64,000 nt of DNA from Cyanidioschyzon merolae. Taxonomy: Eukaryota. Within the stretch, counting starts at the first letter, position 1, and every line of letters starts with the position of its first letter. Location: NCBI GenBank assembly GCA_000091205.1, contig AP006498.2. The stretch is one strand, 5' to 3'. The notes beneath the pieces are model-generated. The model was not told the origin of the DNA. It saw only the letters and a program-made list of their open reading frames with translations, and made no database searches. Below, piece after piece: positions 4,463-47,479 of the stretch. Made by a program: the position numbers and the translations under genes.

Positions 4463-6228
4463 GCTCGCAGAGCAGCTGGGCCGGAGTAGCCTCTGTTCTG
4501 GGGGCCCCAACCAGGTTCGCTCCAGTGCTCGTGTCCCAGCACACAGCGTGCCTCGCACGGGTCGTGTGCGCGCGGAGGGAACACTCGCACAAACCGTAGA
4601 AGTACAGCTGACGCTTCGTTGGCGCGTGTTCAATACAGACTTGCCTCCGGATCCAGAAAGCACGAATGCACTGCAAGGGCGCAGCCAACTCAGGTTATGC
4701 ACTGTGCAATGCTGTAGGCACGCAACGCCGCTCAGTTGTGTGAATGCTGCAGGCTGCGCTTTCTGTGAAGCAGCGACGCACAGGACCCAAACTTTTGGCA
4801 GCGTCCAACTTTGCCTTGGCGCAGCGGTTGAAGCTTCCTGTAGAGAAAGCATACAGTCCACCAGCTTCGGGAGAGCGAGCTTGTTTCAAGCCTGCAGTCG
4901 TTTCAGACACTTTGTTCCAGCGCTGCTTGGGATGCATCTGGTGGCGGGCCCGCAACGATGCGGGCGCAGGCGATGGTGGCGGTGGAAGGGCGCAGCAGGC
5001 CGTTGCAGCGCGCGCGCCCCGGACGTCAGTCGAATCCGATCGAAATCGACAGAGGCATGGCGACTGGCGATGTCAGGCTAGGGACTGGTAGACTGCTTGA
5101 TCGTTATCAGGGGCAGGTATGCACCCATTGCTATTCTGTTCGATGCATAGATGCTAAAGCCTGAAATGTCGGACGGTTGAGTGGACAGTATCCCTGCATC
5201 TCAAGCCGCAGCCCGAATTCCATCAAGGCGAACCGTCATGCGTCCGTACAAGCTTCGTCCTTTTTTTTCTAGTCCAGATTGATGCATCCGCCAAGGCTCT
5301 CGAGGACGCGCAAACGCAGCTGATGATCAGGGAAGAGAGTTCAGTTCCTCGGCAGGCGCTTGCGTGCCCCGTACGACCAAGAACAGTTTTTAGGCAATAA
5401 CGGCCTGTCCCATCTAAAGATATTCAGAGTGCGGAGCCTATCGGGGACGCCACGATTGGACAGGGCCGCTCCGCGCGCTACCCTTGCCCGCCTCGGACCG
5501 CCACATGGAGGACACGGCGCAGGACGAGGACTCGCTCATTGCCAAGACTCCTCCGGGGAGCAGAGCAAGGCCTACTACTGGAGCCCAGCGACGTGCTGGT
5601 GCGAGTTCGCGATCAGTTCGACACGCGCGCCTCGAGGGCCTCTCTGCGTCGTCGCCGAAGAGCTGACAGAAAGCGTTCCAGGTGCGCGAGCCTCACTTGG
5701 GCATATACCAGTGAGTGGGTGCGGGCACCACTAGTCCGGTGAACTCGGCCGGTCAGCCAAATCCTCCACCCGGAAGGTTCGCACCGTCACTGCAGCGAGC
5801 GCAGTCCAAGCTTCTAGGCGCGGTAGGCGTGCAGGATGCGCGTCCAATTCGGCAAGATGCGCTGCCGGCATGCCCGCCCATGTGTCGGACCCATTCCGTG
5901 CAAGCGAGGCACGTCGAGCGATTTGGGGCGCGTGCATAGGCCCGCGCACGATGAATGATCTGGTTGCATGCGTACACAAACAGGACTTTTCTGACCATGA
6001 TATCCCTATTCGGACATGACGCATCGCGCACTTCCGCAACACCTCGTTGCTGGGCGCAGCCGGCCGCGGCACCTCGCGAGCACGCCGGCCTCGGCAGCGC
6101 GAGCGCATTAGCGAGATCTCCGACGACGGACGTGGGTCGAGATTCGATTTCGGAGGCCGCACGACGCAAAAAGGTCATTCGAGTTTGTGTCTGCGGACTC
6201 TGAACGTTCCTCGTAAAGCACTTCTGAT

Positions 6229-7464
6229 ATGATCGGCTTCGTTGGTTCTGTTAGCTCTCTCGGCGCTCGTGTTTCATCCTTCACAGCAAGCTGTAGTGCA
6301 AGCAACAGCTGCTCGGTCGTAGCTGCTCCCCGACGGGCGTTCGACCTCCGCGCGGCTGAGGAGAAGCCACAAACCAGCAGTTCGAGTGCAGCGGGATCGT
6401 CTTCTGCTTCGAGTAGTGGCGCGGGATCATCGGAGCGTGCGGCGCCATCAGCAGTGTCGTCACCCCCTGCGGCGGCGACGTCCACGCAAAGCGGGGCAGC
6501 GAAGATGCCCACGATGACTGCACTGAAGACGGCAGCAAATAGGAAGTTGGGTGAGGTTACACAGGCTCGCTTGCGCAAGGTCGGAGACTCCGTCACCCCA
6601 AGTTATCGCCAGATCGATAGCTTCCGTGTTCCAGCGTATCCGATACCCGGGAAAGATGACGAAGTGTCTCGCCGCACGGAGCGTATGTACATGATCCTGC
6701 GCCAGATCTTTGGATACGGTCACCTCTTCGAGCGAGACGGTGAGGAAATGGATAAGCTCCAGAGTTGCTATATCAATGGTGAGCTGAGCACGAAGGATTT
6801 CGTGAGAGCCGTCGCCAAGTCGGAAACATACAAGGAAAAGTTTTGGAACAACCGGCCGCCGTTCGGACGCTACGGCGCGGTGGAGCTCGCCTACAAGCAT
6901 CTGCTTGGCCGCCGCACCTTCGACGCGAAGGAGAACGCAGCTGCGCAAGCGGTGTACCACGCACACGGCTACGACGCAATGATCGATTATATTATCGACA
7001 ACGAGTATGATCGGGCGTTTCCGTTCCGCAACGACGGCAGCGACAACGTGCCGCACTGGCGTGAACCAGCTTGGTTCATGGGACGCCGCCCCGAACCCCA
7101 GGCACTACGTGGCGGTCTCGAGCGCGCGATGAGCGGTGCCCGTGGTGCGATGCTCTACCAGTACCGCGTCCGCCTCGGCTCCCAGAATATGGGCGTTGTG
7201 GCTGGAGGCTGTCCGCCGCCCGTGAACCTCAAGAACAAGACCGACGAGCCGGTGTTCCGTGTGGTCACGGCCGGGTATCGCGAGCCGGCAGTGAACAGCG
7301 GCGGGCTGGGCTACTCCGTGGGCAGGTCCTACACGCGCCAGAACAAGTACAGCACCGTGGCGCGCTCACAGCGCACGTATCTAGTGCCACTGAGCGAGCT
7401 GAACAACACCATCACTCGCATTCACCGCTCGGGAGGCTACATCCGCACAGTGGAGCGAGCGTAA
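6229..7464 (+). CDS. phycobilisome rod linker polypeptide (CpcC-type: PBS-linker domain plus C-terminal CpcD domain) with an N-terminal Ser/Ala-rich presequence
   Basis: FVRAVAKSETYKEKFW ... ELAYKHLLGRRTFD ... GYDAMIDYIIDNEYDRAFP ... DNVPHW aligns closely with cyanobacterial CpcC (FVRSVAKSELYKKKFF / ELNYKHLLGRAPYD / GYDAEIDSYIDSWEY). The C-terminal PVFRVVTAG ... RTYLVPLSELNNTITRIHRSGGYIRTV matches the CpcD domain (RVYRLEVTG ... TVFIVPYERLSDKIQQVHKQGGKIVSV). ATG confirmed at 6229. The N-terminus MIGFVGSVSSLGARVSSFTASCSASNS... resembles a red-algal plastid transit peptide with Phe at position 4. Confidence 0.9.
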   Translation: MIGFVGSVSSLGARVSSFTASCSASNSCSVVAAPRRAFDLRAAEEKPQTSSSSAAGSSSASSSGAGSSERAAPSAVSSPPAAATSTQSGAAKMPTMTALKTAANRKLGEVTQARLRKVGDSVTPSYRQIDSFRVPAYPIPGKDDEVSRRTERMYMILRQIFGYGHLFERDGEEMDKLQSCYINGELSTKDFVRAVAKSETYKEKFWNNRPPFGRYGAVELAYKHLLGRRTFDAKENAAAQAVYHAHGYDAMIDYIIDNEYDRAFPFRNDGSDNVPHWREPAWFMGRRPEPQALRGGLERAMSGARGAMLYQYRVRLGSQNMGVVAGGCPPPVNLKNKTDEPVFRVVTAGYREPAVNSGGLGYSVGRSYTRQNKYSTVARSQRTYLVPLSELNNTITRIHRSGGYIRTVERA

Positions 7465-8516: not shown

Positions 8517-9500
8517 TCATCGAGGAGAGTCTTCGATTGGATCACGCGAATCGGTGCATTCGGTTGGGCCCCAGGGCATAGGTCGATTTTGCAAACGCTC
8601 CTGTCTCCTTTGCAAGCGCTCAATCACGAGCATAAGTTCCGTATCGGGCTCGAGCGAGCCTATGGATACCGTGGCGACGCAGCCGGCAACTGGACAAGGT
8701 GCTGCATGCCTGTCCGTGAGACGTTCACGGGCTCGCAAACGGTTGTGGGCTCTGATGAGCTGCTCTATGCTCTGCTTTTCGTATGAGTGCTGGCAATCGC
8801 GGTTCCGGAAGGGTTGCTGCATGACTACGCCAGAAACGGGGCAGCGTATTCGAGAAGCATCTGGTTCCCAGTCAGCGGCTACATACGTCGGGGCGGTTGA
8901 ATCACCGACAATAGGGTCTGGGCTCGCTTGCTGCGTAGCGGCGAGTGACGGATCACTCAGGCTATCCGCCGAAGCTGACTGCATCGTGCCGCCTTCAACC
9001 AGGCGACGGACCTTGTCACGGTTCCGCTCCGTTATTGTCTCTCCCGAGCTAGCGCTTCTTGCCGACCTTCCCGTCTCTTCAAAACGCCGCCACGTGTCCG
9101 TGAAAGACTCTGTCGTCTGCCCTTCAGTCCCTGTTGGTGTTGGTTCCTGGCAGGAGAGAAGCGCCTCGCGAACTTTCCGTGCAGTTCGGAGGATATTTGC
9201 AGCCTCTCTCTCTCCGGTAACGCACTGCGAAGCAGCCAACGAGAGACTCTCCAGCGTACCAGCTTGCGAGGCCGCACTGGGGCCCTGACAGACTGCCTCC
9301 GGGTTCGCAGGCGCTCCTCCGAGAAGGCACCGAGATGCGCTCACCAAATGCTCCGAGAGGAGCACGCTTCGCGTCTTCCACGCAGTGGTGAAACGCTCAA
9401 TATCGGCCAGTGAGGCCTCAAAGTCAGGACTTTCAACCGTTGTGCCTTCCGCAATGGATTTGGCAAGTTCTAGTATTGAAGCCTCGCCGCTACGCTCCAT
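8517..9500 (-). CDS. NSE2: NSE2/MMS21-type SP-RING SUMO E3 ligase (SMC5/6 complex subunit)
   Basis: The C-terminal CPVSGVVMQQPFRNRDCQHSYEKQSIEQLI...APCPVAGC...L.PD..L matches the Nse2 SP-RING (CP.T..P....C.H.[FY][ED]K..I......CP..GC). ATG confirmed at 9500. The plus-strand ORFs 7902..8786 and 8326..9288 overlap it antisense and have no recognisable domains. Confidence 0.7.
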   Translation of the reverse strand: MERSGEASILELAKSIAEGTTVESPDFEASLADIERFTTAWKTRSVLLSEHLVSASRCLLGGAPANPEAVCQGPSAASQAGTLESLSLAASQCVTGEREAANILRTARKVREALLSCQEPTPTGTEGQTTESFTDTWRRFEETGRSARSASSGETITERNRDKVRRLVEGGTMQSASADSLSDPSLAATQQASPDPIVGDSTAPTYVAADWEPDASRIRCPVSGVVMQQPFRNRDCQHSYEKQSIEQLIRAHNRLRARERLTDRHAAPCPVAGCVATVSIGSLEPDTELMLVIERLQRRQERLQNRPMPWGPTECTDSRDPIEDSPR

Positions 9501-11505
9501 GTCTGGTTCTTCTTACAAGAGGTGAGCGTATCGAAGAAGACCTCCGCCTATCTACCTGCCTGTCTGCCAAACAAATATTGACGGAACCCAACCGCTTTCC
9601 AAACCAGGCGTGCCACAAGTCTAACAGTACTCTTCGGGCAAGTTTCCAGGTTTTGGCGCCACATCCTACGCGCTTCCGCAGGGTGCGTTTCATTCAATGC
9701 CGGTACACGGCTGCAGGCTTTCGTCGTACAGGCGGAGCTGCGTTCCCTTACTCCTCCACTTTGGAAACAACCTCTGCGTTATCAGAGAGAAAGGCTTGAA
9801 CTGCTGTGTCCTTGACGTTCATCGCGATGTTCGTTTATTTGCAGAGTTTCAGTTCTGCTCGCATGAGGCCAGTTGCAATATGCAAGGCACAATAGTGTCG
9901 GACTTGTACACTTTGTCGTTAATTATGCAGCACTGCAGGCAGGAACTCTCGCGAGAATAGTTAATGGGAGGGGGGTTGGAACTGTGAAGTGCCTCAACAC
10001 GGCATGTGCCGGTGACTCGGTTTGTCATGTTCTTCAGCAACCAGGTAGGCAGCCTCTGGGAGTCATTTTGTGCCGCTGCAAAAGAACCACCTTGCACCAG
10101 GGAAAACGTTCTTGTTTCCGTGAAACAAAAATAGGCGAATCTTAGGACAAAAGTAAAGATCGGTCTCTGTGATATAAAATCAGCCTCCGAGTTACCTGCG
10201 AGGAATGTGGAACTCGTGGAAAACAGCGGTCCTTTATGAGTGAAAGCCGTTGCATTCCACATGCAACGCTTTTCCGGTAGCGAATTCGGGTCCAGGTACC
10301 TCAATGTACATCATCGACTTGTAATTAATCAGACAGCGCTGTGGCGGCCACGTAGGATGGTAGATGCGTGCGCTCCTGTCCAGGCACGAAACTGTCAGCG
10401 CTCGCCTCTGTCTCCACGCCAGCTCACGGATGGTGCGATACCATGCTACGACTTGCATGAGATTCATGCACTGAAGAAGAGAAGCATGAGACAAGTCAAT
10501 TCGTAGTGGCATGCAGGCACAGACTCGTTCTATCACAAGCCAATGTTCCCTGTGCTGAAGCGTTCTTCAGGAGAATCAAAGTATGCCACCGCGCTACCCT
10601 GAGCGTTTTGGCTCCGTGCCTGTTCTGCCGCCTTCACCAAGCCGGGGCTCGAATCATTTCGATATCCTTCGGATGCTTGCTAGTGCGTTACGGGCATTTC
10701 CAGAGCACCGATGCGAAGCTGACTTCTGCTCCAGTGCCTCGGCATTGAAGTCTGTGCTCGCATGCGTTGACGAAGAATACACGGCGCGTTCGAAACTGAC
10801 GCGCCGTTTCCGGCCAATATCCCAGACGGACAGAGCTCTTCGCGGAGTCATTACTCTGGTGAACGCCACGCAACGCAGCTATCATGCGCCCGAAGACGGG
10901 ATTCGACCGTACCCAAGAGCGCCCCTGCCCAAGTGCGGCACACATCTCGTAAATGGATCCCATGTGATGGCCTCTTGTAGCGAAACTGCTACCGGATACG
11001 TTATCCGAGGCGAAACCTCGGCAAATGCCAAGATACACCGGCGTTTGCGACCAGTTCAACTGTCCCGGAGTGTGACTGCAAATCTTCGTAGAATATAGAG
11101 ATTCCCATCGCAACATATCTTTGTCTGGGCGGAAACGTTTGCAAAGTAGTTCTCCACGGAGCGACTCTTGGTGGGCGTTTCCCGCCACGGAGCGCAAACT
11201 GGCCCCTTGGGTGCGGCTTCCTGATGGCACTGTAGCTGCGCGACATGTGTGTGCGAACGAGTCGTTCCTGGGTACTATGATGTACGGAAACATGACAGTA
11301 ATGATTGCTTTCCCTGCATGGGGCCTCTTCGTGTTGTCGGCTCGCTTTCTGTGGCCCAGGGCTCTGCTAATTTGATGTCTGACGAAAATGGAAATCGTCC
11401 AATAAACTAACTCGGACGTACATGCGAAATTTTTGGATCTTTCCGCAGTCATCAACACCAGCCTTGGCGGATTCTCTGTGACTGCTTCCATTAGATTTCT
11501 CGTAG

Positions 11506-11965
11506 CTACGACTTTAAATACGCCGGTCGATCACCTCCCTCAAGATCTGTCGTCAGAGCTCGACGGATATTGATGCCAGCATTAAAGTCCCGATTTCGCC
11601 GTCTCAGGCTGGTGCCAACGCATGCCATGCCCAGGCAAAAGTTGCGATCTTCGCTTTGTCTGCCATCTCCATTTTCTCTCCAGAGCAGCATCGATACGCC
11701 CTTCGCAGCAGCGACTCTTGGTAATGGTCACGCTTTTCCTGTTTGTCCAATACGCTTCCTCCTCTGAGCGCCGCCCTGTGGCGCGTGAACGCTTGCCCCA
11801 ACGCTCACAGCACATGCACGTGCTGGGTACAGAACCATCCCGCAAGTGCCGTCCTCCATCCACGCGCCCGGTACCGTACCCTGTGATCGACAGCTTATTC
11901 CGGGTAAGTCTGCGGCAGGTGCTCTGCCCGCTGAACACGAAAGCGCACGCCACTCTATTCGACAA
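11506..11965 (-). pseudogene. TnpB/Fanzor-like C-terminal remnant (zinc ribbon plus RuvC-III), frameshifted
   Basis: SVPSTCMCCERWG resembles the TnpB motif pSSkTCsnCG. In a second frame, RNFCLGMACVGTSLRRRNRDFNAGINIRRAL resembles RtFtCpnCG...DRDvNAAiNI. The upstream ITGYGTG sits at the RuvC-II position without the Glu. Confidence 0.5.
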
Positions 11966-12160
11966 AGGATTTGTGGATCGCGATGTTGTTCACGATGAAA
12001 CAAGTTCCGGACGGGAAACCCGCAGCAGCCAGAAGACTGAGGAGCTTCGAACAATCCACGCTACACTGGTGCAACGCGGTGACGCACTCTGCGCTGGGGG
12101 CGAGCGCTGACGTCAGTGCGAGTCCAAGACACTTCTCCGTGCAAGCAGAAGCGCTGGAGC

Positions 12161-12220
12161 CTCCGAGAGCCTCCGAGAGCCTCCGAAAGCCTCCGAGAGC
12201 CTCCGAAAGCCTCCGAGAGC
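12161..12220. repeat. 10-bp tandem repeat (ctccga[g/a]agc) x6 inside R1 copy 1, with only x2 in copy 2 at 19996..20015
   Basis: Direct reading of the sequence. The 40-bp length difference is the only indel between the two near-identical copies. Confidence 0.9.
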
Positions 12221-12664
12221 ATACCCCCAAGAGAGATATCGTGCTGTTGTCGAACCCTATTTCGTGGATGGCCACACAGAGTAGAGAATAACTCCTTCGG
12301 ACGGAATAGATCGTTCGGCGTTCGCAGTCCAGTCCGGAATCGGCACAAGCTCGCGAAGGAGTCCTCAAGGGAAGGCGTCGAGTTTTTTGGTCGCCAGTCC
12401 ATCAGAGCAGATTCCTACGCGCTCGGGTAGCCTCGAAACCAGAGAACTCTAAAAATTGAAGAATGCGTCATTTGAGCATATTACTCGTAAGGAAGGAGTA
12501 TGAGTGGCGTCTTCTGCGTATGAATTGGATGATGGTATCGGTTATTTTACGAACCCTTTTACGGGGACGTCGCGAATGACCGTGACTCTGGGGATGAAAC
12601 GCAGTCCAGCGGGAACGAGTCGAAGGGGTCATTCCGGAAAGACCACCGATGATCCTGGAGTTAT

Positions 12665-14935
12665 ATGAAAATCCCAAACCGATTGCTGCACTTTGCATGC
12701 CGAGGACGTGCAGCTAAAAGAATTTCGGGAGAATTGCAAGGCAGGAAGAGAGCGAAGAGTTCAGTGTTTCATTTGAATCTGGCTCGGCTGTTGTGCACTC
12801 GTCCAGAGGAGGCACCGAAATGCCTCGGAGAACGCTCGCACTGCACTCATCTTAAGGGACTCGTGGCAATGGACTTCAAAGACTTGGTTGCTCTCCGTTG
12901 TGAACTTTCTGTGCAGAGTCTGACAGAAGTTTCGGCTGCACTCCGCCGCGTGATTCTGAGCAAGTCCTACTACGAGTATCAGGTAACTAGAGCGCCCCTG
13001 CGGAGTTTCCTCAACAACGGACCGCTATGGATTTTCCAGACTCTGAGCGGTGCAGGCAGCCTATGGGTATCAAACTTTTACGACACTTGCCGGGATCTCA
13101 TCGCGTCGGGAACGAGACCGGCAACAGGCACTTCCAGTTCTGCGGCGGGCGGCGCGCCAGCGAGGGCCTCACCGACCAGGGCGAGCGATAAAACAGAAAA
13201 GAAAAAGGCTCGGAGGCTGCTGGAGCTATGTCAGGCCGCACAGCCACCGGGGCTTCGCTCTTTGTGTGAACTAGAAAGGGCCCGATGCCAGGCTGCTGTG
13301 CATGCTCTCGGCCGTCTCGAGCGAGCCTTAGCAGTGTATCTTGGAAGGGCCCAGGAGGAGCTTTCTCGTCTACGAAGTTTAGTCGAGAAAGATCCTCAAA
13401 ATAGTTCTGAGTTGCGGGCACTCTTTCTCTCTTGCGACGAATTGCATCACCGTACACTAACAGCGCTGGAAGCAACCGATGTGGATGCTATCGAGGAGGC
13501 TGTTTACGCCCACTTGTTGGTCGATTCTGACGTTCTGGCTGATCTGGATCGCTGGGCTTCTATAATGAAAGAGGATGCAGAACGATTCATTACGCTCCTG
13601 CGCGATGTTCCGCGTAGATGGAACGTCTATTTGACTCTGGAAGAGCTCAGTCGCATCATGCCTGCGGCAGGACGTCAGTCCGGAAAGCGCCGCGGTCTGG
13701 GCTTCATCGAGCGATTGCAAAGGGTTTCGCTCATTTACCCATCGCACTTTGCGAGAAACTGGATACGCTACCTGTGCGGTACCCTGACCATCTTCTGGTC
13801 CTGGACGAAAATCAGCGCACATCGCGAGCATGTGATGCATATCGCACTGAGCGTACGTCAGGTTGTGAGAGGCTTCTGGGACGAGCGCATTATTACCCCG
13901 CTCACCATGATCTACAGGGAAATCTTTCAATCGTCGTATCGAACATTCATGGATCCGAAGGCGGTTCAGGCTGAGAAAGAGACCTTGAAGCGCATGGTTG
14001 TGGATTTTACCCGGGAGGCCTATGCGCGCCTCCCGGACGACCAGCGACAGGAAGCTGAACTTCTGGCTGCAAATGGTGATCTCACACCGGTCATGAAAGT
14101 CTACGAACGCCAGATTCGCAGCCCTGTGGTGAATATGCTTGCTGGTGACGTGATCAGAGCATTACTCATACAAGTCCAGAAACTCAAAGTTGATGTCGAG
14201 CAGGAGATGGTCGCTGTAGACTCCTTGGTTCGTTCGAACGAGCTCAATCTCCAGATCGCTGCTGCCGTTCCAGGCGTTCTTGGATGTTGCCTAGCGGTCG
14301 CGCTCCTGTACCGCTGGTTCAGGCGTTGGTGGTCGAGTATTCGCCTCACTGAAGTAGATCGTTTCGGAGGTGGCGGATATCTCTGGGCCAACGCCTTCGC
14401 CGAGAAGCTTCCCACCCGTGAGCGGGCCCGCCTCTTGCTACGAGATATCGAACGCTATCTGGTGTTGACGCTTTCGCTACGCGGCCCTGAAGCAGCTTCT
14501 GCGAGGCTTCAAGAGACGCCTCTGCTCCAGAAAGCACAAGTGCTCAACGGGAGAGCGCCGGCTTCGTTGGCGTCCGCTTCTCCGGAACGTGTGCAACGAG
14601 TATCAGATCGAACGCTCGCGACGTTCTTCCCTGGCGGTCTCGCTCAGGGTGAAACTGGCGAGAACCTCAAAAGCAGTGAAAATAGTGTGATTTTTCTCTC
14701 GACGGCTTGCATTGCTGAGTACGAAGACAAAGGACGTATTCTTCTCACCCTGGACGAACTGGAGGCCATGGTAACGAGCCGCGCTGGAGAGTTTGGGATC
14801 AGCCGCGGCTCTCAGCTGGAGACTCGCCTACGTGAAGATCTTTTGGACCTGAGATCATTCGCTCTCGACGCTGAACAAAAACTGCTCACAATCCTTCGAA
14901 TGCGCTCTACATATCCCTTTTTATGGGATCGCTAG
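12665..14935 (+). CDS. NCA2-like (nuclear control of ATPase 2 family) membrane protein; the first 39 codons come from the R1 repeat, so the true start may be ATG 12869
   Basis: A 756-aa uninterrupted ORF. VRGFWDERIITPLTMIYREIF and VDSLVRSNELNLQIAAAVPGVLGCCLAVALLYRWF (a TM segment) recall conserved NCA2-domain blocks (gFW.nWv.eP...I..ti; ksNELnF...vaP). This is recalled from memory and not verified. ATG at 12665 lies inside the repeat; the same start in copy 2 gives only the 71-aa ORF 20460..20675. Confidence 0.4.
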   Translation: MKIPNRLLHFACRGRAAKRISGELQGRKRAKSSVFHLNLARLLCTRPEEAPKCLGERSHCTHLKGLVAMDFKDLVALRCELSVQSLTEVSAALRRVILSKSYYEYQVTRAPLRSFLNNGPLWIFQTLSGAGSLWVSNFYDTCRDLIASGTRPATGTSSSAAGGAPARASPTRASDKTEKKKARRLLELCQAAQPPGLRSLCELERARCQAAVHALGRLERALAVYLGRAQEELSRLRSLVEKDPQNSSELRALFLSCDELHHRTLTALEATDVDAIEEAVYAHLLVDSDVLADLDRWASIMKEDAERFITLLRDVPRRWNVYLTLEELSRIMPAAGRQSGKRRGLGFIERLQRVSLIYPSHFARNWIRYLCGTLTIFWSWTKISAHREHVMHIALSVRQVVRGFWDERIITPLTMIYREIFQSSYRTFMDPKAVQAEKETLKRMVVDFTREAYARLPDDQRQEAELLAANGDLTPVMKVYERQIRSPVVNMLAGDVIRALLIQVQKLKVDVEQEMVAVDSLVRSNELNLQIAAAVPGVLGCCLAVALLYRWFRRWWSSIRLTEVDRFGGGGYLWANAFAEKLPTRERARLLLRDIERYLVLTLSLRGPEAASARLQETPLLQKAQVLNGRAPASLASASPERVQRVSDRTLATFFPGGLAQGETGENLKSSENSVIFLSTACIAEYEDKGRILLTLDELEAMVTSRAGEFGISRGSQLETRLREDLLDLRSFALDAEQKLLTILRMRSTYPFLWDR

Positions 14936-16112
14936 CAGCTGTGCTACCGTATTGTTCCCTGCGATCCTGCACGTTATGCGCTCATCCAGTGCCCTGCGAC
15001 CGCTTGCCACTGAGTGCTTCTGTATGTTTTCACTCTGTACCTGCAATTCGTGCGCTCTGCCAAGCCTCTGTTATCGCTCGCCACTGAGTGCTCCTGTACG
15101 TTTTCACTTGGAGCCTGCATCTGATGCGCTCATCTCATCCATAGCGCATTGGTGAAAGACAAAGTCCTTTCTCAGAGGTATTTTTAAAAAGGCTCTTACG
15201 GATGAAAACTGTTCGTATGTGCACCGCAGTGGTGCCCATCGTTTTTTTTTTCGAGTCGGAAAGTGCTCTCGCTCTATCGCCTACCCCACCGGAACTAATA
15301 CTGCATACATCGTTGTCTCCAAAAGAAACGTTCCAGCGCTTGCCACGCAGTCTGTTGTACGTATTTCGTACAAGTGATGCATCGCGTCAACGATGGCACT
15401 CTGCCAGACTGCATTTCGTCGTTTCCAGGGCCTAGCACCCAGGGTCCGTTGAAGTGGGTCGCTGTTCGTCGCATGCAGCACGCAACCGGCATCGAAGAGA
15501 GTCACTGGAAACTACTCGAGGAGCAGTGCCTGCCTCTCGCTGCTAGATCCATTTACAGCTGTCGCAACTTGTTATGGCCATAATGTCCATGGAAACCGAA
15601 AAGCTACGGTAGGCAAGTAATATGTAACTGCATCGAATGCAGTGGTTGCAGCACCTCCATCGTAGCAGCAGTCAAACGATCATGGCGCTGCTCCTTTGGC
15701 GCATAACGCATAACGCGCGGGCGCATAGACTTGCATCTGTGTTGCCATCAATGCTCGTTTATTCCGTCGGGATTTCGAAGCGCCCACGATCGCAGTGGGA
15801 GGAGTACGAAACATGTGAAAGCACCAGATGCCGAATCAATCTCCCGTCCTCGAATTTGCACATGAAACCGTGGGATTCGTGCGTCTCCACAAGCCCTGGC
15901 TAATTTAAGATGCGCTTCTTGAGACATTTTTGATTGTGTGCCGTCTAACGCCAGCGTGGGCAACGTGAACGAGCCTCCAAGCTAGGACGCGACATTTTTG
16001 TCTTCTACACACATGCGAACATACATGGGAAAGGGTCTCGTACCGCTGGCGTACGCTCTAAAGATTGGGTCTCTCCCCATTGTAATCAACATGAGCCTTT
16101 GGGGGCTTCTCA

Positions 16113-17235
16113 GCGATTGTTTCCGCTTCCTCTCTCCTGTCCACGCCATTCGGTACACTAGTCGCTACAGTTCCGTTATCAGCTGTTGGAAGATGTGGAT
16201 GGCAGTGACAAAGACCCGATTTCGCTCCTTCTCGCTGTTGTCGACGAATGCAGTGCAGAGGCGGCAGTTACAACCTGCGCTTCTGTTGCTATTTTCAATT
16301 TTTTTGTTTACAGCCTCGGTTCGCCCTTCGCAGCAGTGGTACTTGACTGCCGTCACGTGTTCTCGTACGTCCATCTCACTTTTACCTCGAGCACCGCCTT
16401 GTGGTGCGTGACGGTTGCTTCATCACTCAGAACATGCCGTGGGCTGGTACGGAGGACTCCCCATAATGTCCTTCTCCGTTTCCGCACCTGGTCCCGTACC
16501 TAACGATTACGGACTCCTTCTGGGCGGTACAAACGGCGAGTGCTCTGTTCCCTGCACATGCGAGCGCATCCTGTTCCATTCGATAGTTGATGTTTAGAAA
16601 GAGACGTTGTCCATAATGAACCGAGTGAAGGAAAAATATTTCAGGCCGGAGATCAAGTCGGGATACTTAGATCCGTCTACGCCCTCGGCATGGGAAACGG
16701 TGACTCACGCTCCACTGGAAGCGATCGCTGGAATGCCTCGATTCCCAGTCCAGGAACTTTTCCATGGAAACAGAAAAGACGGGAATCGCTGGATCCGCAA
16801 TCGGTGAGAGGTTCATGCTGCTGCCGAATCCTGTATTTCGGATAGCCTGAAAGAGAGAAGGATTTACCTTTCGAACAGAGTCGATCATTAAATGTGACAA
16901 GTTAAGCGAAATTTCAGCATGAACTTCTTAACAAGGCCCTGATGGACGTTGTCGAGTTTTTCTCTCGCCAATCTAGCTATGCGAAGGGTTGCGACAACAA
17001 AGTTGCCTTCAAACAGCAATATGGAAAACTTGAGGAACGCATGATTTGAGCATGGAACACCTAGTGACTTGGGAAGATTGGAGGCTTGCGCGTGTGAACT
17101 GGATAATGATATCGTCTATTTTACGACCCGCCGTTCGAAGGCGTTGCGAATCATCTTAATTCGTGTGAAGTTACGAATTCCAGCAGCAAATAGTCGAAGA
17201 CGCCATTCCGAAGACACAACCGAGAATTCTAAAAT
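16113..17235 (-). mobile_element. R1 element copy 3 (diverged, about 1.1 kb), same orientation as copies 1 and 2
   Basis: Plus-to-plus DNA homology to copy 1 over 11441..12650, for example aaagacccgatttcgctcc versus aaagtcccgatttcgccgtc. The end module 16900..17225 aligns with 12340..12650. The minus ORF 16165..16374 carries KYHCCEGRTEAV...CNCRLC...RNRVFVTAIHIFQQL in a single frame, matching the copy-1 pieces RCCEGRIDAA / CLGMAC / RNRDFNAGINIRRAL. It starts with TTTCCGCTT. Confidence 0.6.
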
Positions 17236-17406
17236 CTACATATGAACCAGTAAGTCCTCACAGCTGTACTTTAAAATGTCGATGCTTAACGTCTAAAAAC
17301 AAGTGCGAATAAAAGTCGAAGTGCAGGAACATTGCGAGTAGTCCAGCGTTCCATTTTTAATCTGACGCAGTTGTGGAGGGACAATGAATCCCGGAGCGAC
17401 TTTGCC

Positions 17407-18436
17407 ATGCCAGAGCTGCCAGCAGTTGAGCGGGCTCGTCGTATGATCGATGCCTTATGTAAGAGCTATAGACGGATAAACGTTCAATCCGCACCCGATC
17501 CGAAACATGCCTCTGAGTTTGTGGACAAGCTTTTCGAAGGCAGGCTGGGGCTGGACCTGCTCGAGCGACGTGTCTGCGTAGGTCATGTGCTGCGGCAACT
17601 TGGCCGTCACGGCAAGAACCTGTGGTTTGAGTTCGACGAACCTCCCCACGTTTTCGTCCGCTTTCGAATGGCTGGCTCTTTCGTGGTTCGTGGTCACGAA
17701 GACGGCTACGTTTATGAGACTTTTCGCCGACGTACTGCCGCCTGTCGGTTCCACGACTCAGGAACGCCCCTCGTCTCAGTCTGGCCACCGAAGCATACAC
17801 ACATTGTTTTTAGTTTTGCTCCCTGCTCCCCAGGAGTAGATTCTGCCAGTATAAACGGTATCTCTGTCCGAGAGTTCGCGCTGGTCGACCCGCGAAAGGT
17901 TACGAGGATGCGCCTCAGCGACTCGTCGTGTCCTTCTGTCGAGATTCGAAGCCTCATAGGAGGCTTCGATGCGCTGCATGCGCTCCCTCCTATTGAGCGC
18001 TTCGAAAGGAAAATGTTAGTGTACCCGAAAGCGAATATCAAATCGTTGCTTTTGGGCCAGCGCTTCATCGCTGGGCTCGACAATTGGATGGTCGACGAAG
18101 TTCTTTATTACGCTCATATTCACCCGGAGAGTCGCACTTGTGACCTCACTCGTATCGATGTTGCAGCATTGCATCAGAGCATCGCATAAGTTGTGCGAAG
18201 CTCGTGTGATGCAAACGCAGACTTGGCCCTTTTCCCCTAAGACTGGCTCTTTCATATCCGGTGGCAAGGAGCAGCGAAAAGGAGACGCGGCCGCGACATG
18301 CATCAAGTCGTTATTACAGCAGACGGGAAAAGCAAATTTCATTCATGCTAGCGGACGTACAGCGGTATATGTACCCTCTCTGCAAAGAAAACGTGGCCAT
18401 GCCCGAAAGGTTTGCCACACAGACGCCGGCGCATAA
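17407..18436 (+). CDS. FPG: Fpg/Nei-family (formamidopyrimidine-DNA glycosylase, H2TH) base-excision repair enzyme, plant/fungal zincless-finger type; needs a short intron (about 18160..18220) or a +1 frameshift
   Basis: The N-terminus is MPELPAVERARRM (canonical Fpg MPELPEVE with catalytic Pro2; ATG at 17407). The H2TH block is DNWMVDEVLYYAHIHPE. ORF 1 stops at 18189, but the +1 frame (18221 onward) encodes TWPFSPKTG...ASGRTAVYVPSLQ, matching the Fpg C-terminal beta-hairpin (gGRsTffCPqCQ) with the Cys residues replaced. A candidate 61-nt intron is GTTGCA...AAACGCAG at 18160..18220; the exon phases fit. Confidence 0.75.
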
Positions 18437-19273: not shown

Positions 19274-20583
19274 CTTTCCGCAGTCATCAACACCAGCCTT
19301 GGCGGATTCTCTGTGACTGCTTCCATTAGATTTCTCGTAGCTACGACTTTAAATACGCCGGTCGATCACCTCCCTCAAGATCTGTCGTCAGAGCTCGACG
19401 GATATTGATGCCAGCATTAAAGTCCCGATTTCGCCGTCTCAGGCTGGTGCCAACGCATGCCATGCCCAGGCAAAAGTTGCGATCTTCGCTTTGTCTGCCA
19501 TCTCCATTTTCTCTCCAGAGCAGCATCGATACGCCCTTCGCAGCAGCGACTCTTGGTAATGGTCACGCTTTTCCTGTTTGTCCAATACGCTTCCTCCTCT
19601 GAGCGCCGCCCTGTGGCGCGTGAACGCTTGCCCCAACGCTCACAGCACATGCACGTGCTGGGTACAGAACCATCCCGCAAGTGCCGTCCTCCATCCACGC
19701 GCCCGGTACCGTACCCTGTGATCGACAGCTTATTCCGGGTAAGTCTGCGGCAGGTGCTCTGCCCGCTGAACACGAAAGCGCACGCCACTCTATTCGACAA
19801 AGGATTTGTGGATCGCGATGTTGTTCACGATGAAACAAGTTCCGGACGGGAAACCCGCAGCAGCCAGAAGACTGAGGAGCTTCGAACAATCCACGCTACA
19901 CTGGTGCAACGCGGTGACGCACTCTGCGCTGGGGGCGAGCGCTGACGTCAGTGCGAGTCCAAAACACTTCTCCGTGCAAGCAGAAGCGCTGGAGCCTCCG
20001 AGAGCCTCCGAGAGCATACCCCCAAGAGAGATATCGTGCTGTTGTCGAACCCTATTTCGTGGATGGCCACACAGAGTAGAGAATAACTCCTTCGGACGGA
20101 ATAGATCGTTCGGCGTTCGCAGTCCAGTCCGGAATCGGCACAAGCTCGCGAAGGAGTCCTCAAGGGAAGGCGTCGAGTTTTTTGGTCGCCAGTCCATCAG
20201 AGCAGATTCCTGCGCGCTCGGGTAGCCTCGAAACCAGAGAACTCTAAAAATTGAAGAATGCGTCATTTGAGCATATTACTCGTAAGGAAGGAGTATGAGT
20301 GGCGTCTTCTGCGTATGAATTGGATGATGGTATCGGTTATTTTACGAACCCTTTTACGGGGACGTCGCGAATGACCGTGACTCCGGGGATGAAACGCAGT
20401 CCAGCGGGAACGAGTCGAAGGGGTCATTCCGGAAAGACCACCGATGATCCTGGAGTTATATGAAAATCCCAAACCGATTGCTGCACTTTGCATGCCGAGG
20501 ACGTGCAGCTAAAAGAATTTCGGGAGAATTGCAAGGCAGGAAGAGAGCGAAGAGTTCAGTGTTTCGTTTCAGTCTGAAGGTTG
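19274..20583 (-). mobile_element. R1 element copy 2, near-identical to copy 1
   Basis: The six-frame ORFs are identical to those of copy 1 (for example the 61-aa MLLWRENGDGRQSEDRNFCLGMACVGTSLRRRNRDFNAGINIRRAL... and the 162-aa ORF). The only differences are the VNTR count and roughly 3 SNPs. It diverges from copy 1 immediately after ...agttcagtgtttc. Confidence 0.75.
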
Positions 20584-21650: not shown

Positions 21651-21761
21651 TTGTGGCTGTACTCTGCGTCGCGAACGTTCTCTCTCGGGCTCTTTGTACA
21701 GGCGTGACACCCGCACGTTCTGTCGACGCCGCAAATACGCGCCATACATTGTCATACACTT

Positions 21762-21910
21762 CATGCGATCGACATGGACAAGGCGTCCGTGGCACTCCAT
21801 TGGTGCAGGTATGTCTGTAAATGTACACAACTAGCGATACGCATCATGCGAGCGACACGGACAGGGCGCCCGTGGCAGCACATTGGTGTATAAATGTCTA
21901 ATAAGGTACA
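21762..21910. repeat. imperfect tandem duplication of about 70 bp, upstream of the methyltransferase gene
   Basis: catgcgatcgacatggacaaggcgtccgtggcactccattggtgcaggtatgtctgtaaatgtacac is followed by catgcgagcgacacggacagggcgcccgtggcagcacattggtgtataaatgtctaataaggtacac. Confidence 0.8.
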
Positions 21911-22016
21911 CGGCAAGGTCGCCGCGTGTCGCTGCGTCGCCATTCCGCGAAATAAGCTACTGTGTGCAGCGCTCGACGCTGGAGTGGGGCGTTATCGTTC
22001 GTTAGGCTCGTGAGTC

Positions 22017-29307: not shown

Positions 29308-29949
29308 ATTGGGCCTGCTCAAGGCGTCTCAGAGCCAAGACGGCTGAGGCTGCTCCGCAGCGTGCGAGGAAAGCGTTCGTTGCAGTTGCACAGCCTTCAT
29401 GCGGCGACCGTCCAGCGACCGCCACCTCGAGATCTTCATCCGCGCGCAGTGCGTCCGACGCGAGCCTGGAGCAGCCGGACCTGTGGCGAAGTCCGACGAC
29501 GCTTGGCATAGCTGCACTTCCTGTCGTTCAACGCAATGCTGTTCCGTACCCGCTGCGTATCATTGAATGCTTATTCGATGTTTATAGCAAGAGATCGAGA
29601 TCGTTATGCAATGCACCCTACATACCGCAGACGGGTTGCCTGTATGGTACACTCTGTACTGAGGAGTGTACCGGGAACTGCATGCCTCCTTCAGGTCAGT
29701 CATACCGCATTACTTTGATGGCAGAGGAACGCTGAAAGAAATAACTAGATCTGCTCCGCGCCGAAAACTGGTATTGCCAAAGTATGTTTGCGGTCAATGG
29801 TACAAAAACAACCCGTTGATCTCTTGAGGGAAAGCAAAAGCTGTGATAGGAGCTGCTAGGACTGTCTCTGTTACTCAGTAGCTTGTTCGCTTGATCCTGA
29901 AAACACTGGGACACAGTCGCAAGAAAAGGCAATCTAATTCAGCACCATC

Positions 29950-30545
29950 TTGCACGGAAATCGCAACGAAAGCGTTCCTAGAACGTTGCGATCGGTATGA
30001 AGCTGAGCAACGCCCGTGTATTTCAGTCGATGTGGCTTGCTTCGGATGAAACGGTCGGAGCGTACATAAGTATTTGCTGGGCGGGAGCCCGGCGTATGTA
30101 CGATCCAACACGAAGAGAATGACGACATTATCATCTGTTCTAGGTACAGTGTATGCATATGGCGGCCTCAGTTTCGCTTATAAAGAAGGCTCATACATCA
30201 GGACCCTTTTCGTCGAATTATTCAAGATTTTCCTCCTCACGTCTGGCGGCGTCATTTTGTTGGACAACGTGGCGTTTCACCATTCCCCTTGCGTTCGAGC
30301 TTTTGCAGATGCGGTTGGGGTAGAACTGCTTTTCACTCCTTCGTACGCTCCTTGGTTAATCCCAGTCCAGGAGTGTTTTCTATCATGAAACGTAATGAGC
30401 GCTCCACTGGGCGTACTGATGAAGCGTTCAGCACACGGTGACACCAGGGCACATTTCGTCTTTCCTCCGCAAGTCCCTGTCTCTCCGGGAGGGTTTTCCC
30501 CTAAGGGCATAAAAAGGTGCGTTTATTTGAAGGAATAAAAAAATC
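29950..30545 (+). mobile_element. Tc1/mariner (IS630-superfamily) transposase relic B, 5'-truncated
   Basis: ORF 30074..30388 encodes ...GGVILLDNVAFHHSPCVRAFADAVGVELLFTPSYAPWLIPVQECF, which carries the second D and the E of the DD(34)E motif (DN..H ... Y.P.LNP.E). It is homologous to relics at 34550..35350 and 45840..46790, and the 3' tail is homologous to the low end of relic C. Confidence 0.7.
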
Positions 30546-30989
30546 CGAGGGAAAATTAAGGACATGAAAGTCGGGGATCCTGGCGAGCCGTCATCGCCAG
30601 CTGCCGGAAAACAACGAAAAACTCCTCCGCCCGCCCACCATCGAGCGAAGAAGGACAAGTGACAAAGAAGAAAACAGAAGTTTAGCTAGAAATGGTGTTT
30701 CCTCCAACAGAACAATGAATAGGCTGTTGTAGCATATACAGCATGAGTTCTGGGAGTCCTTCCAAAGGTGAATTCTATCAGAGGCAATAAACGCATGGAG
30801 TACGTGAAGCGAGACTTTACGCTGCTACCAACATCATACGCTATGTGGTGCTGTATACGAGACTACAGGAGCTTAGGCGATATGAGTTTGTAAGGCAGCC
30901 TCTCAGGGACTTGGTGCAAAGAGAAAAACTGAAGCCAATGGCAGGAGGGCGGCCAAAAAGGCTGCGAGGCGTCTTCGGGTGGGTGTCAA

Positions 30990-31650
30990 TTTGCCAAGGA
31001 TAGCAAGAACAGAAACTAAACACTTACTAGCTGCCCGATAACGATTTCTTCCCGCCTCTACAGTAAGCGTTGAAAGGGAGGGAAGGGTTCCGTATATTCG
31101 AAAGTTTACCTTCTAGGCGGAAGATCCCCCGACCCGGACGAGTCTGCCGGGCTTACGCTCCGTTTGAATCTGCAGTGACGAAAGCTGTGATGAAGTTTGA
31201 GCAGCTCGTCCGAAATGCAAGTTATCCTGGGACTCGGAGCTGATATGCTGCCTCTGGATGTCGCCCTGGTCGCAGTGGACTCCTAGTATATCGCTTCGCG
31301 TTGCCGCAGGCAGTATGTCTGTCTGTACAGTTTCCAGGCTCCCAGAATGATAATGAATCCCAACCTGTGTCGGATGAACCACGCCTCGGTCCGACGCCTC
31401 AGCAGTATGGCAAAGCCGCTCTATCTCCGTTCTGCATCGGCATCAGCGGTATGGGCGCTTTCGCTGGAGCCCAGAGCAGGTACTCGGCACGCGACAGAAT
31501 GTATGAAGCGACCAGTGTGTCCAAGAAGAAGTATCGGTTATGGAACTTGGAGTTAAGGTGCCGCGTGATGGACGCTTTCCCGAAAGCCAAGACCCATCCG
31601 GCAATCTGGAATCCATAGTCTATGTAAATATTCTGTCAAAGAAAAAAGAT
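30990..31650 (+). repeat. R2 dispersed repeat copy 1 (about 650 bp, no recognisable coding capacity)
   Basis: Homologous to 33880..34575 in the same orientation, for example gcgttgaaagggagggaagggttccgtatattcgaaagttt versus gcgttgaaagggaaaagtgtttcccttattttagaaagttt. Both ends match: ...gatggacgctttcc... and aaagaacagaaacta. Confidence 0.7.
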
Positions 31651-31811
31651 CGACGCGATCGCTGCCTCTGTTGGATGCTGCCGCCCTCGATGTTTCCCAT
31701 CGATTCCAAACCTACTAAACACCCGCGACGACTCGCCCGTCGTGCAGTTCTGTGCAGCTCTGCAACCGCTTGGCCGCATTGCACGAAATAGTCTCGGGTT
31801 GCACTCGTGCC

Positions 31812-32273
31812 ATGTACGGGCGTGACGCAGATGTTAAAGTTCCTAGGAACTTTCGTTTACTCGAAGAGCTCGAGAAAGGGGAACACGGGCTTGGAGACGT
31901 GTGCGTCAGCTATGGCCTTGTGGATGACGACATGACGCTCTCGAACTGGACTGGCACGATCTTGGGCCCACTCAACACGGTGTTTGAGAATCGAATCTAC
32001 AACCTTCGGATTTACTGCGGGCCAGACTATCCGACAAAACCGCCTGTTGTTTTCTTTCGCACTCGTATTAATATAAGCTGTGTGAACGGCGCAACAGGCC
32101 AGGTCGATCCGACGCGTTGTGGCATTCTGCACAACTGGACGCCGGACTGCACGCTGGAGACACTGCTCGTTGAGCTGCGACGTGAAATGACTAGCGCAAC
32201 CAACCGTAGACTGAACCAACCTCCAGAGGGGTCAGAGTTCCCGCCACCGCGCGACATAGAGCGGTTTGGTTAG
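31812..32273 (+). CDS. MMS2: ubiquitin-conjugating enzyme E2 variant (UEV1/MMS2 family, partner of UBC13)
   Basis: [93 protein letters not shown]...LPQPPEG aligns residue for residue with human UEV1A/MMS2. ATG at 31812 (the ORF track begins at 31752). Confidence 0.9.
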
Positions 32274-33879: not shown

Positions 33880-34575
33880 CAACCTACGAGCTACAATTGC
33901 GCTAAAAGAACAGAAACTATCCAATAACCAGCAACTCTATAACAATTTCGTTTCATCTTCACGGCACGCGTTGAAAGGGAAAAGTGTTTCCCTTATTTTA
34001 GAAAGTTTGTCTTCAAGCCGGAAGGTCCCGCGAGACGGACGAGTGTTCCGGGCTTGCACTCCGTGCGCCTCTACAGTGGCGGTCGCAGTGCCGAGACCTG
34101 AACGGCTCATCTGGAATGCGTTTTATTCTGGGAATAAGGGTGGCAAGGGTGTATCCAGGTATCGCCCTGGTGGAAGTGGTCTCCTAGCACAGCTCTTTCG
34201 CGCTGCCGCATGCAGTAGGTCTGTCTGCGCAGATTGCATGCTCCAAAATGATTCTATGATCCGATTCCGTATCGGGTGCACCACGCCTTGGGCCGACGCC
34301 CTCTGTGCCATGACAAAGCCGTTTTGTCTCCGTGCTGTATCCGTACCATCCATGTAGGCGTTATTGTGGGTGCTCACGGCAGGCTCGGCGCGCGGTAGAA
34401 CGCACGTAACGACCAGTACACCCGAGAGGAAATATGGGTGATGAAACTTGAAGGTGGAGCGCAGCATGATGGACGCTTTCCACAATGCCACAACTCATCC
34501 CGCAATTTAGTGACCATGGCCATCTAAAACGATTTCTCAAACAAAAAGGTTCGCATAATGGAGCGATCATTACGT
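33880..34575 (+). repeat. R2 dispersed repeat copy 2
   Basis: See copy 1. It lies about 200 bp upstream of the RPL10A start codon and abuts the truncated 3' tail of Tc1-like relic A. Confidence 0.7.
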
Positions 34576-35350
34576 TACACTATGAAAAACACTCGTTCTT
34601 TGGGGTTCAGCTATGGGCATTACGGAGGAATGAAAAGTAGCTCTACCCCCGATAGAATCCGCAAAAGCTCGAACGCAACGGAAATCGTGAAATGCCAGGT
34701 TGTCCAGTAGAAGCACATCAGCAGATGTGAGGGAAAAGTCTCCAATGATTGGATCATGTGGGTGCTATTTCATGAGCCTTCTCTGCGAGAGAATCCGAGG
34801 CCGCCAAATATATCCACTGCAGCTAGAACAGATGATGAAATCTTTCTCTTGGAGTTCGATCTTATATACAACTGGCGCCTTCTATGCGAATACCCATATA
34901 CAATCCGACCGTTTCGTCCGAACGGAGTCTTACCGACTAAGTAAACGGACCGACGTGCCTGTGCTTCCCAGCGATCGAGACGTCCCAGTAACTCTGTCGT
35001 TGCGATATCGGTGGAAGATGGTGGTGCATGAAACTCAACTTTTTTGCGACTGTATCCCTGTGTATTCAGGACCACACGAACAAGCTGCTGAGTACCAGAC
35101 ACGCCCGTGGTCGCTACCATCGTACGGTTTGATTTCTCTAAAGTGATCAACATATCGTTTTCTACCATTGACCGCAAGCACGCTTCGAGAATATCGGTTA
35201 CTGGCTCGGAGCGCATACACGTTTTTCTTTCAGTTTTCCTCAAACATTTGCGCACTGTGGTATGGCTTACTTGAAGGGGCAAGGCAGTCCTCCTTGCACT
35301 CTTCAACAGAGCATATATCCTATAGGTAATTCGCCTACGATCTAAATGTT
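34550..35350 (-). mobile_element. Tc1/mariner (IS630-superfamily) transposase relic A, degenerate
   Basis: The minus ORF 34770..35306 has an HTH (LQVSHTTVRKCLRK) followed by SVYLVGKTPFGRN (first D of the DDE motif mutated to G) and YIRSNSKRKISSSVLAAVDIFGGLGF. A further reading below 34770 gives ...VLLLDNLAFH.... It is homologous to relics B and C, and the 5' flank 35150..35350 matches 46600..46790. Confidence 0.7.
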
Positions 35351-35607
35351 ACATTCATTAGAGATTTCTGTCTCCTTCTCCACCCCGCAACGATGGTGAA
35401 CCAAAATTGAGTTGAAAGATTACAAGCGACGGCCGTTCCGTGGCCGCAGCTGCTGTGTCCGAATTTACCAAGATCGAGAGCCGTTACGCTTCTGTGCCTG
35501 GCCCTGAGCTCAAACAGCTACGTTTACGTACATACGTTGCAGTGGGTTATGTGAGCACAACTTTAGGCGTCTTACTTTTTCTCACTAGCGCACCAGGATT
35601 TTTCCTA

Positions 35608-45800: not shown

Positions 45801-45839
45801 TCCCTCCAGGATCCTCAGCCTCCGCGTCCATAACTTGTT

Positions 45840-46790: not shown

Positions 46791-47479
46791 TTTGATCTCC
46801 TGCTCTGCGCTCGAAAAAGCATTCGATTGCACTTAGCGACATGGGAGCGAAACTGAATTGGAAGAATTTAAGTTTTTGACCACATCGTCTGAATCCAAAC
46901 CCATCGGGTTGAAAACGGTAAGAAAAAGCATTTGTCTGTGGTGTGGGAAATGAGCAGCGGGCGCATCCGCAGCAGTGATGTACCTCGTTCAGGAAAGGTT
47001 TTCCGGCATTCTCTCCTGCACTGCGGGCTCCAGCTTCCAACTCAAAGGGGCAAATTTCGGCGTTTTTTCCCACGTTGTGTTCATTTCTAGACCAGACACT
47101 GAACAACTGAGATAAGGCAAATTTTCTAAATGGTACGTTTGGATTTGTGACAACCAAGATGTACCAGGCTTTTGGCGGCCTGGTTGCCAAACGCTGCTTT
47201 CCACTGCGAATCAATGGTAATTTTCTCGGCAGTATCACCTAAAGCAAAGATCATCTTCGTTCGCCAATTGCTCAGAAAAATCTCTCTCGGTGCGTTCATC
47301 CGGCGCTCAAGACTCGCTGGACAGCTGAACATTACATTACCGGTGCCTTGCTAGGGTCGACAAGAAAATACCCTCTGTTCTGGCTGCTTACGTTCTCATC
47401 GGAAGTCTCCGTGGTTCGGTACATTGCCCACGTTGAGTACTAATTGATGCTCTGAGAAGTTCGCTCGACACTCCGGAAG

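Follow-up and report, generated by a model that had tools for sequence, protein, structure and literature searches.

Rod linkers of cyanobacteria and red algae

The closest described relatives of the protein considered here are linkers of phycobilisome rods with solved structures from two groups of organisms. The cyanobacterial linkers CpcC1 and CpcC2, represented by chains BL and BM of 7sc8 (Synechocystis PCC 6803), 7eyd_N1 (Anabaena) and 7ext_N1 (Synechococcus 7002), carry an N-terminal Pfam00427 domain and a C-terminal Pfam01383 domain, lack a presequence and are encoded in the cpc operon. The red-algal linker LR1, represented by 5y6p_24 of Griffithsia pacifica and by 6kgx_X2 and 7ezx_X1 of Porphyridium purpureum, is a nuclear-encoded rod linker with the same two domains (PF00427 and PF01383). 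Here we analyze a gene at positions 6229–7464 of a 64,000-nucleotide stretch of Cyanidioschyzon merolae DNA (contig AP006498.2, referred to in its whole length as the window). It is almost certainly the nuclear gene CPCC (CMP166C) of C. merolae 10D, encoding the precursor of a phycocyanin-associated rod linker of the LR1/CpcC class.

The linker repertoire of red algae varies between lineages. Mesophilic species possess many additional linkers (LR2-3, LRC2-3 and gamma subunits) as well as phycoerythrin, all of which are missing from the Cyanidiophytina (PMC6811547). For the latter group, Lee et al. 2019 (PMC6811547) report LR1 as the only nuclear linker family with a Pfam00427 domain. In their study LR1 groups with cyanobacterial sequences, and its origin is attributed to endosymbiotic gene transfer.

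Identity of the gene and its promoter

According to the list of open reading frames (ORFs), positions 6229–7464 of the plus strand form a single ORF of 411 amino acids (aa) with an ATG start and a TAA stop. The nearest in-frame TAA lies at 6214, five codons before the ATG, and M1 is therefore the first possible start. The computed precursor has a mass of 45.0 kDa and a pI of 9.8. The GC content, estimated at about 55% in a preliminary description of this DNA, was measured as 53.1% for the whole window and 60.5% for the ORF.

An exact-sequence look-up showed that the 411-aa protein is identical in every residue to BAM81797.1 / XP_005537833.1, annotated as 'phycocyanin-associated rod linker protein [Cyanidioschyzon merolae strain 10D]' on a record of 908,485 bp. 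Positions 6229–7464 (+) thus hold the complete single-exon coding sequence of the rod linker precursor, including the TAA stop codon. The C. merolae literature names this gene CPCC, with the locus CMP166C. We compared the DNA upstream of the ORF with the published CPCC promoter, described as '500 bp upstream of the CPCC orf'. The 384 nt of it that are printed correspond to window positions 5729–6112 with zero mismatches, and between the first position of the published fragment, 5729, and the ATG at 6229 there are exactly 500 bp. The CPCC promoter and 5' leader are accordingly placed at 5729–6228 (+) by this match. Activity of the 500-bp fragment has been reported in PMC6589524 and PMC12770821; as a strong, light-responsive promoter it belongs to the standard set used in the engineering of C. 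merolae. CPCC itself is highly expressed and light-responsive, its expressed sequence tags are abundant, and the fragment drives strong reporter expression.

Because of the protein identity and the match to the published promoter, the window can be assigned to the nuclear DNA of C. merolae 10D, and the gene in it does not differ from CPCC / CMP166C but is CPCC itself. The 'P' in the locus name presumably stands for chromosome 16. The preliminary description had offered a red-algal or glaucophyte lineage and a Porphyridium- or Cyanidioschyzon-like genome. Its red-algal option was correct and its Cyanidioschyzon option literally so, given the identity to BAM81797.1 and the CMP166C promoter, while the exact match to strain 10D excludes both the glaucophytes and Porphyridium. 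It follows from this assignment that the standard nuclear genetic code applies throughout the window, that introns are almost absent and that transit peptides of the Phe type are expected on plastid proteins. The gene is already known, with an annotation, a published origin and a promoter in routine use for expression, and nothing about it is new. Its practical value is that of an anchor for interpreting the rest of the window with reference to the C. merolae genome, which is published and annotated in full.

Domain architecture and linker class

Two domains were identified in the protein with Pfam. The PBS linker domain PBS_linker_poly (PF00427) spans aa 155–276 (E-value 6.8e-22; 78.3 bits against a cut-off of 28.7), corresponding to window positions 6691–7056 (+), and the CpcD-like domain (PF01383) spans aa 367–408 (E-value 2.3e-08; 34.7 bits against a cut-off of 27), corresponding to 7327–7452 (+). 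Both lie above their cut-offs, and the PBS linker and CpcD domains named in the preliminary description are those of a CpcC-type two-domain rod linker. The placement of the C-terminal domain agrees with an alignment by HMMER, in which positions 232–287 of a cyanobacterial CpcC profile align with residues 354–409. Between the two domains lies an arm of codons 277–366 (7057–7326, +), which is conserved among Cyanidiales.

Orthologues with the same architecture were found in Cyanidiococcus (78% identity) and Cyanidium (67%), and all segment identities given below refer to the window protein compared with these two, in that order, so that three cyanidialean genera are covered. Residues 281–340 of the inter-domain arm are 90% and 68% identical. 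A homology search with the whole protein returned 3 matches, and its repetition with residues 93–411 returned 40, including cyanobacterial CpcC; the small number in the first search was probably caused by the Ser/Ala-rich presumed presequence swamping the word-based list of candidates. The best cyanobacterial homologues in the search with residues 93–411 were 27–34% identical.

An AlphaFold2 model was built from a 31-sequence alignment. It contains a confident helical domain with helices at 143–263 (predicted local distance difference test, pLDDT, 75–92) and a strand-helix-strand unit at 378–410 (pLDDT ~80–85), to which a strand at 342–351 is added as the first strand of the C-terminal domain. 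The part of the inter-domain arm at aa 279–333 was not confidently modelled (pLDDT <50), and residues 1 to ~140 are likewise without confident structure. The helical fold supports the PBS linker domain, as do the structural matches below.

Sequence matches in the PDB extend over the length of both domains. Residues 155–408 are collinear with 38–285 of Synechocystis CpcC1 (chain 7sc8_BL), and end-to-end collinearity was also found with the solved rod linkers 7ext_N1, 7eyd_N1 and 7veb_Z, while the red-algal LR1 chains 6kgx_X2 and 5y6p_24 align in two stretches. When the model was compared with the PDB by Foldseek, the best full-length matches were 7sc8_BL and 7sc8_BM (Synechocystis CpcC1/CpcC2), 7veb_Z, 9wg7_Z1 of Synechococcus 7942 and the LR1 chains 5y6p_24 (Griffithsia) and 6kgx_X2 (Porphyridium). 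The top 10 matches are all CpcC or LR1 chains with 288–309 aligned columns. Against the Pfam00427 crystal structures 3pru/3nph the template modelling score (normalised to the target) was 0.80, with a root-mean-square deviation of 2.4–3.2 Å.

A different assignment, as a rod-core linker of the CpcG/CpcL type or a linker associated with photosystem I, could be drawn from NCBIfam, where the models for CpcG1-4 are the sole matches. Their scores of 35–45 bits are far below the cut-offs of 420–440, however, and cover only the shared PF00427 part; moreover, a C-terminal CpcD domain is present, the full length is collinear with CpcC and LR1 chains, and the red-algal rod-core linker LRC1 is plastid-encoded (PMC6811547). 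We consider this assignment very unlikely, and a CpcG-type rod-core linker was rejected on the basis of the NCBIfam scores and the CpcD domain. A phycoerythrin gamma-type linker (LR-gamma), a chromophore-bearing class that lacks Pfam00427, was rejected as well, since the window protein has this domain; no gamma subunits occurred among the PDB matches of the linker, and Cyanidiophytina are without phycoerythrin (PMC6811547). The preliminary description had looked towards linkers of the LR or gamma type, of which the former holds in the sense of the LR1/CpcC class. Because of the whole-chain collinearity, the fold matches and the CpcG scores far below their cut-offs, the protein is a rod linker of the CpcC/LR1 type, and neither a rod-core nor a gamma-type linker.

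Within this class, the C. merolae protein shares the order of its domains with the cyanobacterial CpcC1/CpcC2 chains introduced above, with which it is collinear over residues 155–408 at ~27–34% identity, but several features set it apart. It is nuclear-encoded, whereas the cyanobacterial genes lie in the cpc operon; in the cyanidialean protein ~18 aa are inserted behind the conserved N-terminal LG, with small insertions also within the Pfam00427 domain; and its inter-domain arm is a different one. With red-algal LR1 it shares both the nuclear location and the two-domain architecture, at ~26–27% identity in the structural alignment.

N-terminal extension and putative transit peptide

The N-terminus of the linker reads MIGFVGSVSSLGARVSSFTAS..., and the first 95 residues are distinguished from the rest of the chain by their composition. 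Ser, Thr, Ala and Gly make up 62% of residues 1–95 (27 Ser and 20 Ala), along with 4 acidic and 7 basic residues, compared with 28% of residues 96–411. This agrees with the Ser/Ala-rich extension starting MIGFVGS that had been noted before, and the cyanobacterial homologues do not have it. The enrichment is uneven, with 74% Ser/Thr/Ala/Gly in residues 46–95 and 49% in residues 1–45. Residues 8–95 are predicted to be disordered in the AlphaFold2 model (pLDDT <50).

The conservation of the N-terminal region changes in steps. The first seven residues, M[IL]GFV[GS]S, are 100% identical to Cyanidiococcus and 71% to Cyanidium (5/7; MLGFVSS), after which identity falls to 53% and 17% over aa 8–45 and to 46% and 10% over aa 46–95, where 20 gap columns make this the least conserved part of the protein. 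Over aa 96–150 it rises to 89% and 64%, and high conservation continues past residue 150. On this basis the region was divided into codons 1–7 (6229–6249, +), the conserved Phe motif with which the presumed plastid transit peptide begins, defined by orthologue comparison and by the motif in the literature; codons 8–95 (6250–6513, +), the variable, Ser/Ala-rich and acid-poor rest of the presumed presequence, defined by conservation, composition and pLDDT; and codons 96–154 (6514–6690, +), a conserved segment at the start of what is presumed to be the mature protein, defined by conservation and MAFFT alignment.

The cyanobacterial homologues are 249–294 aa long and begin opposite residue ~95–117 of the cyanidialean proteins. 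In the MAFFT alignment, the start of cyanobacterial CpcC (MAITTAASRLG) lies opposite M96-TALKTAANRKLG, followed by the ~18-aa insertion specific to Cyanidiales. The HMMER local alignment to a profile of 14 cyanobacterial CpcCs starts only at profile position 36, corresponding to residue 153, and a search of the PDB with residues 90–170 alone gave no match.

An N-terminal motif based on Phe is a hallmark of rhodophyte and glaucophyte transit peptides (PMC7038456, PMC4510345), and Patron and Waller, as cited in PMC4510345, put its share among known rhodophyte transit peptides at 85%. F4 of MIGFVGS is kept in Cyanidiococcus and Cyanidium, and other red-algal PF00427 linkers found in the homology search begin with MAFVPA or MAFVSA. 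The nearest parallel within C. merolae is APCC (CMO250C), likewise a nuclear phycobilisome linker, whose peptide of residues 1–60 (MFVQTSFFGTG...) has been used experimentally for chloroplast targeting. Both peptides have an M-x(0-2)-F-V start and are hydroxylated and acid-poor, but the Phe of APCC, which starts MFVQTSFF, is at position 2 and not 4, and APCC lacks the long poly-Ser/Ala tract; targeting by the CPCC presequence is, in comparison, putative. The hallmark invoked in the preliminary description is accordingly described in the literature and conserved at F4, though a weak sign when taken by itself.

Taken together, the absence of the extension in cyanobacteria, its composition, the drop in conservation, the predicted disorder and the Phe start form the case for a transit peptide, in which residues 1–95 are presumed to be a plastid-targeting presequence that would be cleaved upon import. 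A cut near residue 96 would leave a product of 316 aa with a computed mass of 35.9 kDa and a pI of 9.7.

Several points weigh against this interpretation. A Phe at position 4 is by itself not diagnostic: the same window encodes a 2406-aa Ank/Arm protein, not a plastid protein, whose sequence starts MDKF. The equivalence of M96 to the cyanobacterial start codon holds at the level of the MAFFT alignment without statistical support and is suggestive only. Neither our analysis nor the cited literature contains direct evidence for import or for the cleavage site. Finally, a presequence of ~95 aa would be long, and the mature protein might instead include its Ser/Ala-rich second half.

We therefore considered a shorter cleaved peptide, in which only the first ~40–60 residues are removed and the Ser/Ala-rich stretch of about aa 46–95 is kept as a flexible functional tail, a reading that overlaps partly with cleavage near residue 96. 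It draws on the functional targeting peptide of APCC, which comprises 60 aa, and on the much greater Ser/Ala enrichment of residues 46–95 than of residues 1–45; in addition, the predicted disorder runs to ~residue 140 and so does not mark a cleavage point. Against these stand the lowest conservation of the whole protein in residues 46–95 (46% and 10%, with the 20 gap columns), which speaks against a specific function, and the coincidence of the jump in conservation at ~residue 96 with the aligned cyanobacterial N-terminus. A retained tail thus appears unlikely, though it is the most credible of the alternatives considered here.

Translation could also begin at M93 or M96, in which case residues 1–95 would be an untranslated leader and there would be no presequence. 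The alignment of M96-TALKTAANRKLG with the cyanobacterial MAITTAASRLG would fit such a start, and prokaryote-style gene callers give a 316-aa product from M96 on 54 metagenome contigs, which is however the expected output of bacterial gene finders on eukaryotic DNA. The frame is open from M1 in three genera despite indels, with the first 7 residues conserved, and a nuclear-encoded phycobilisome protein requires a targeting signal. Moreover, because the promoter fragment ending at 6228 drives a reporter, transcription starts upstream of M1, which is the first ATG after the in-frame stop. A start at M93 or M96 is on these grounds highly improbable, and the presumed presequence from M1 remains the preferred reading.

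Truncated versions of the linker were also encountered in public data. The 316-aa version from M96 (window positions 6514–7464) occurs on 54 contigs in public metagenome and Logan assemblies, and in a 383-aa version from public assemblies a frameshift alters the C-terminus, so that the CpcD domain is missing. Both versions probably stem from bacterial-style gene calling and from assembly errors on environmental DNA resembling that of C. merolae, rather than representing real isoforms.

Proposed role of the linker

By analogy to solved phycobilisome rods, we propose a pathway for the linker. On the basis of established knowledge, the 45-kDa precursor would be made in the cytosol. Its Phe-containing, Ser/Ala-rich presequence would be recognised, in a Phe-dependent manner, by a red-algal import pore of the Toc75/Omp85 type and removed in the stroma by the stromal processing peptidase, leaving a mature linker that is probably basic, of ~36 kDa, and starts around residue 90–96. 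Of two neighbouring phycocyanin hexamers, one would then hold the Pfam00427 domain in its central cavity and the other would take up the CpcD-like domain in its cavity, so that the discs of the light-harvesting antenna would be stacked into rods as they are by CpcC1/CpcC2 in Synechocystis. The gene itself traces back to a cyanobacterial cpcC that reached the nucleus through endosymbiotic gene transfer. Two observations count against placing the linker in this way: direct evidence for its position in the C. merolae phycobilisome was found neither here nor in the cited literature, and the PDB matches by sequence and by Foldseek include no cyanidialean phycobilisome structure.

The conserved ~55 residues at aa 96–150, which include the ~18-aa insertion, have no counterpart in cyanobacterial CpcC. 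A rather doubtful possibility is that this segment, perhaps with part of the Ser/Ala tract, lets one linker do work that is shared in cyanobacteria by several rod linkers and the CpcD cap. If this were true, the cyanidialean rod would represent a minimal one-linker design.

Genomic context and conserved gene order

The long ORFs neighbouring the linker belong to eukaryotic families, each contained in one uninterrupted ORF as judged by Pfam. These families comprise a VTT domain protein, an Nse2-type SUMO-ligase zinc finger (zf-Nse), NCA2, formamidopyrimidine-DNA glycosylase, an EF-hand protein, a PEMT/ICMT methyltransferase, a 1645-aa NIF/CTD-like phosphatase, a UEV-type E2 variant, a eukaryotic-type ribosomal L1/L10a, an E2 ubiquitin-conjugating enzyme (UQ_con), 3-dehydroquinate synthase, a glyoxalase, the 2406-aa Ank+Arm protein and an AIR-synthase-like protein. 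The nuclear, eukaryotic and single-exon surroundings given in the preliminary description were thereby confirmed. A tRNA scan and an Rfam scan of the whole window gave no tRNA genes and no Rfam matches, and by these scans the window contains no rRNA genes. Positions 1–21830 share their gene order with the 703-kb contig VWRR01000005.1 of Cyanidiococcus yangmingshanensis, namely RNase III/dsRBD, VTT (−), linker (+), NCA2 (+), EF-hand (+) and PEMT (−).

These data bear on the alternative that the linker gene is prokaryotic, derived from cyanobacterial contamination or plastid DNA, with the presequence an artefact. The pair of PF00427 and PF01383 is indeed typical of cyanobacterial CpcC. Yet the best cyanobacterial proteins are only 27–34% identical, the exact match is to a nuclear-encoded C. 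merolae protein from a record of 908 kb, eukaryotic genes flank the linker (zf-Nse, NCA2, E2, Ank/Arm, L10a-type L1), the same nuclear gene order recurs in Cyanidiococcus, and tRNA and rRNA genes are absent from the window. A prokaryotic origin is refuted by the exact protein match, the eukaryotic flanks and the Cyanidiococcus gene order, and its probability is close to nil. The combination that the preliminary description had named as fatal to its reading, a best match in a cyanobacterium together with prokaryotic flanks, was looked for and not found.

Several further features of the neighbouring genes were recorded. Among the genes called at the Cyanidiococcus locus, no Pfam-matching counterpart was found for the zf-Nse ORF (8517–9500, −) or the formamidopyrimidine-DNA glycosylase ORF (17332–18189, +). 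The E2-like ORF at 31752–32273 covers only positions 20–109 of the 140 in the UQ_con profile; an intron was considered as the cause and rejected, the ORF being a complete UEV-type E2 variant that ends at its stop. The protein starting MDKF is encoded at 54078–61298 (+) by one uninterrupted ORF of 2406 aa, with Armadillo repeats and many ankyrin repeats. Four ORFs of 267–381 aa, at 10688–11491 (−), 36624–37769 (−), 44262–45128 (−) and 50410–51411 (+), gave no Pfam match at an E-value of 0.001.

Repeats elsewhere in the window

A dispersed duplication of 1.3 kb is present at 11439–12781 and 19274–20576, with 96.6% identity overall and 98–99% in blocks free of gaps. There is a length difference of 40 bp between the copies, near a 10-bp microsatellite at 12157–12220, and each contains an identical 162-aa ORF (11622–12110 and 19457–19945) without a match in Pfam. 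At its right end, the copy at 11439–12781 extends over the first ~116 nt of the NCA2 ORF.

A second, intergenic family of dispersed repeats comprises copies of 0.65–1.07 kb with ~70% identity in both orientations, at 29562–30622, 45768–46827 (−), 34559–35380, 45984–46805, 31005–31652 and 33906–34553. Shorter related pieces lie at 12340–12560, 20135–20355, 41035–41254 and 16894–17239. The ORFs tested within the copy at 34559–35380 gave no Pfam match. These ~70%-identical repeats may be decayed mobile elements.

Three unrelated tandem duplications, each with about two copies of a 74–83-bp unit at 72–79% identity, were found at 14955–15134, 21754–21911 and 53449–53607. Every one of them sits at a gene boundary, one directly following the NCA2 stop, one at the 5' end of the PEMT ORF and one upstream of the Ank/Arm gene.

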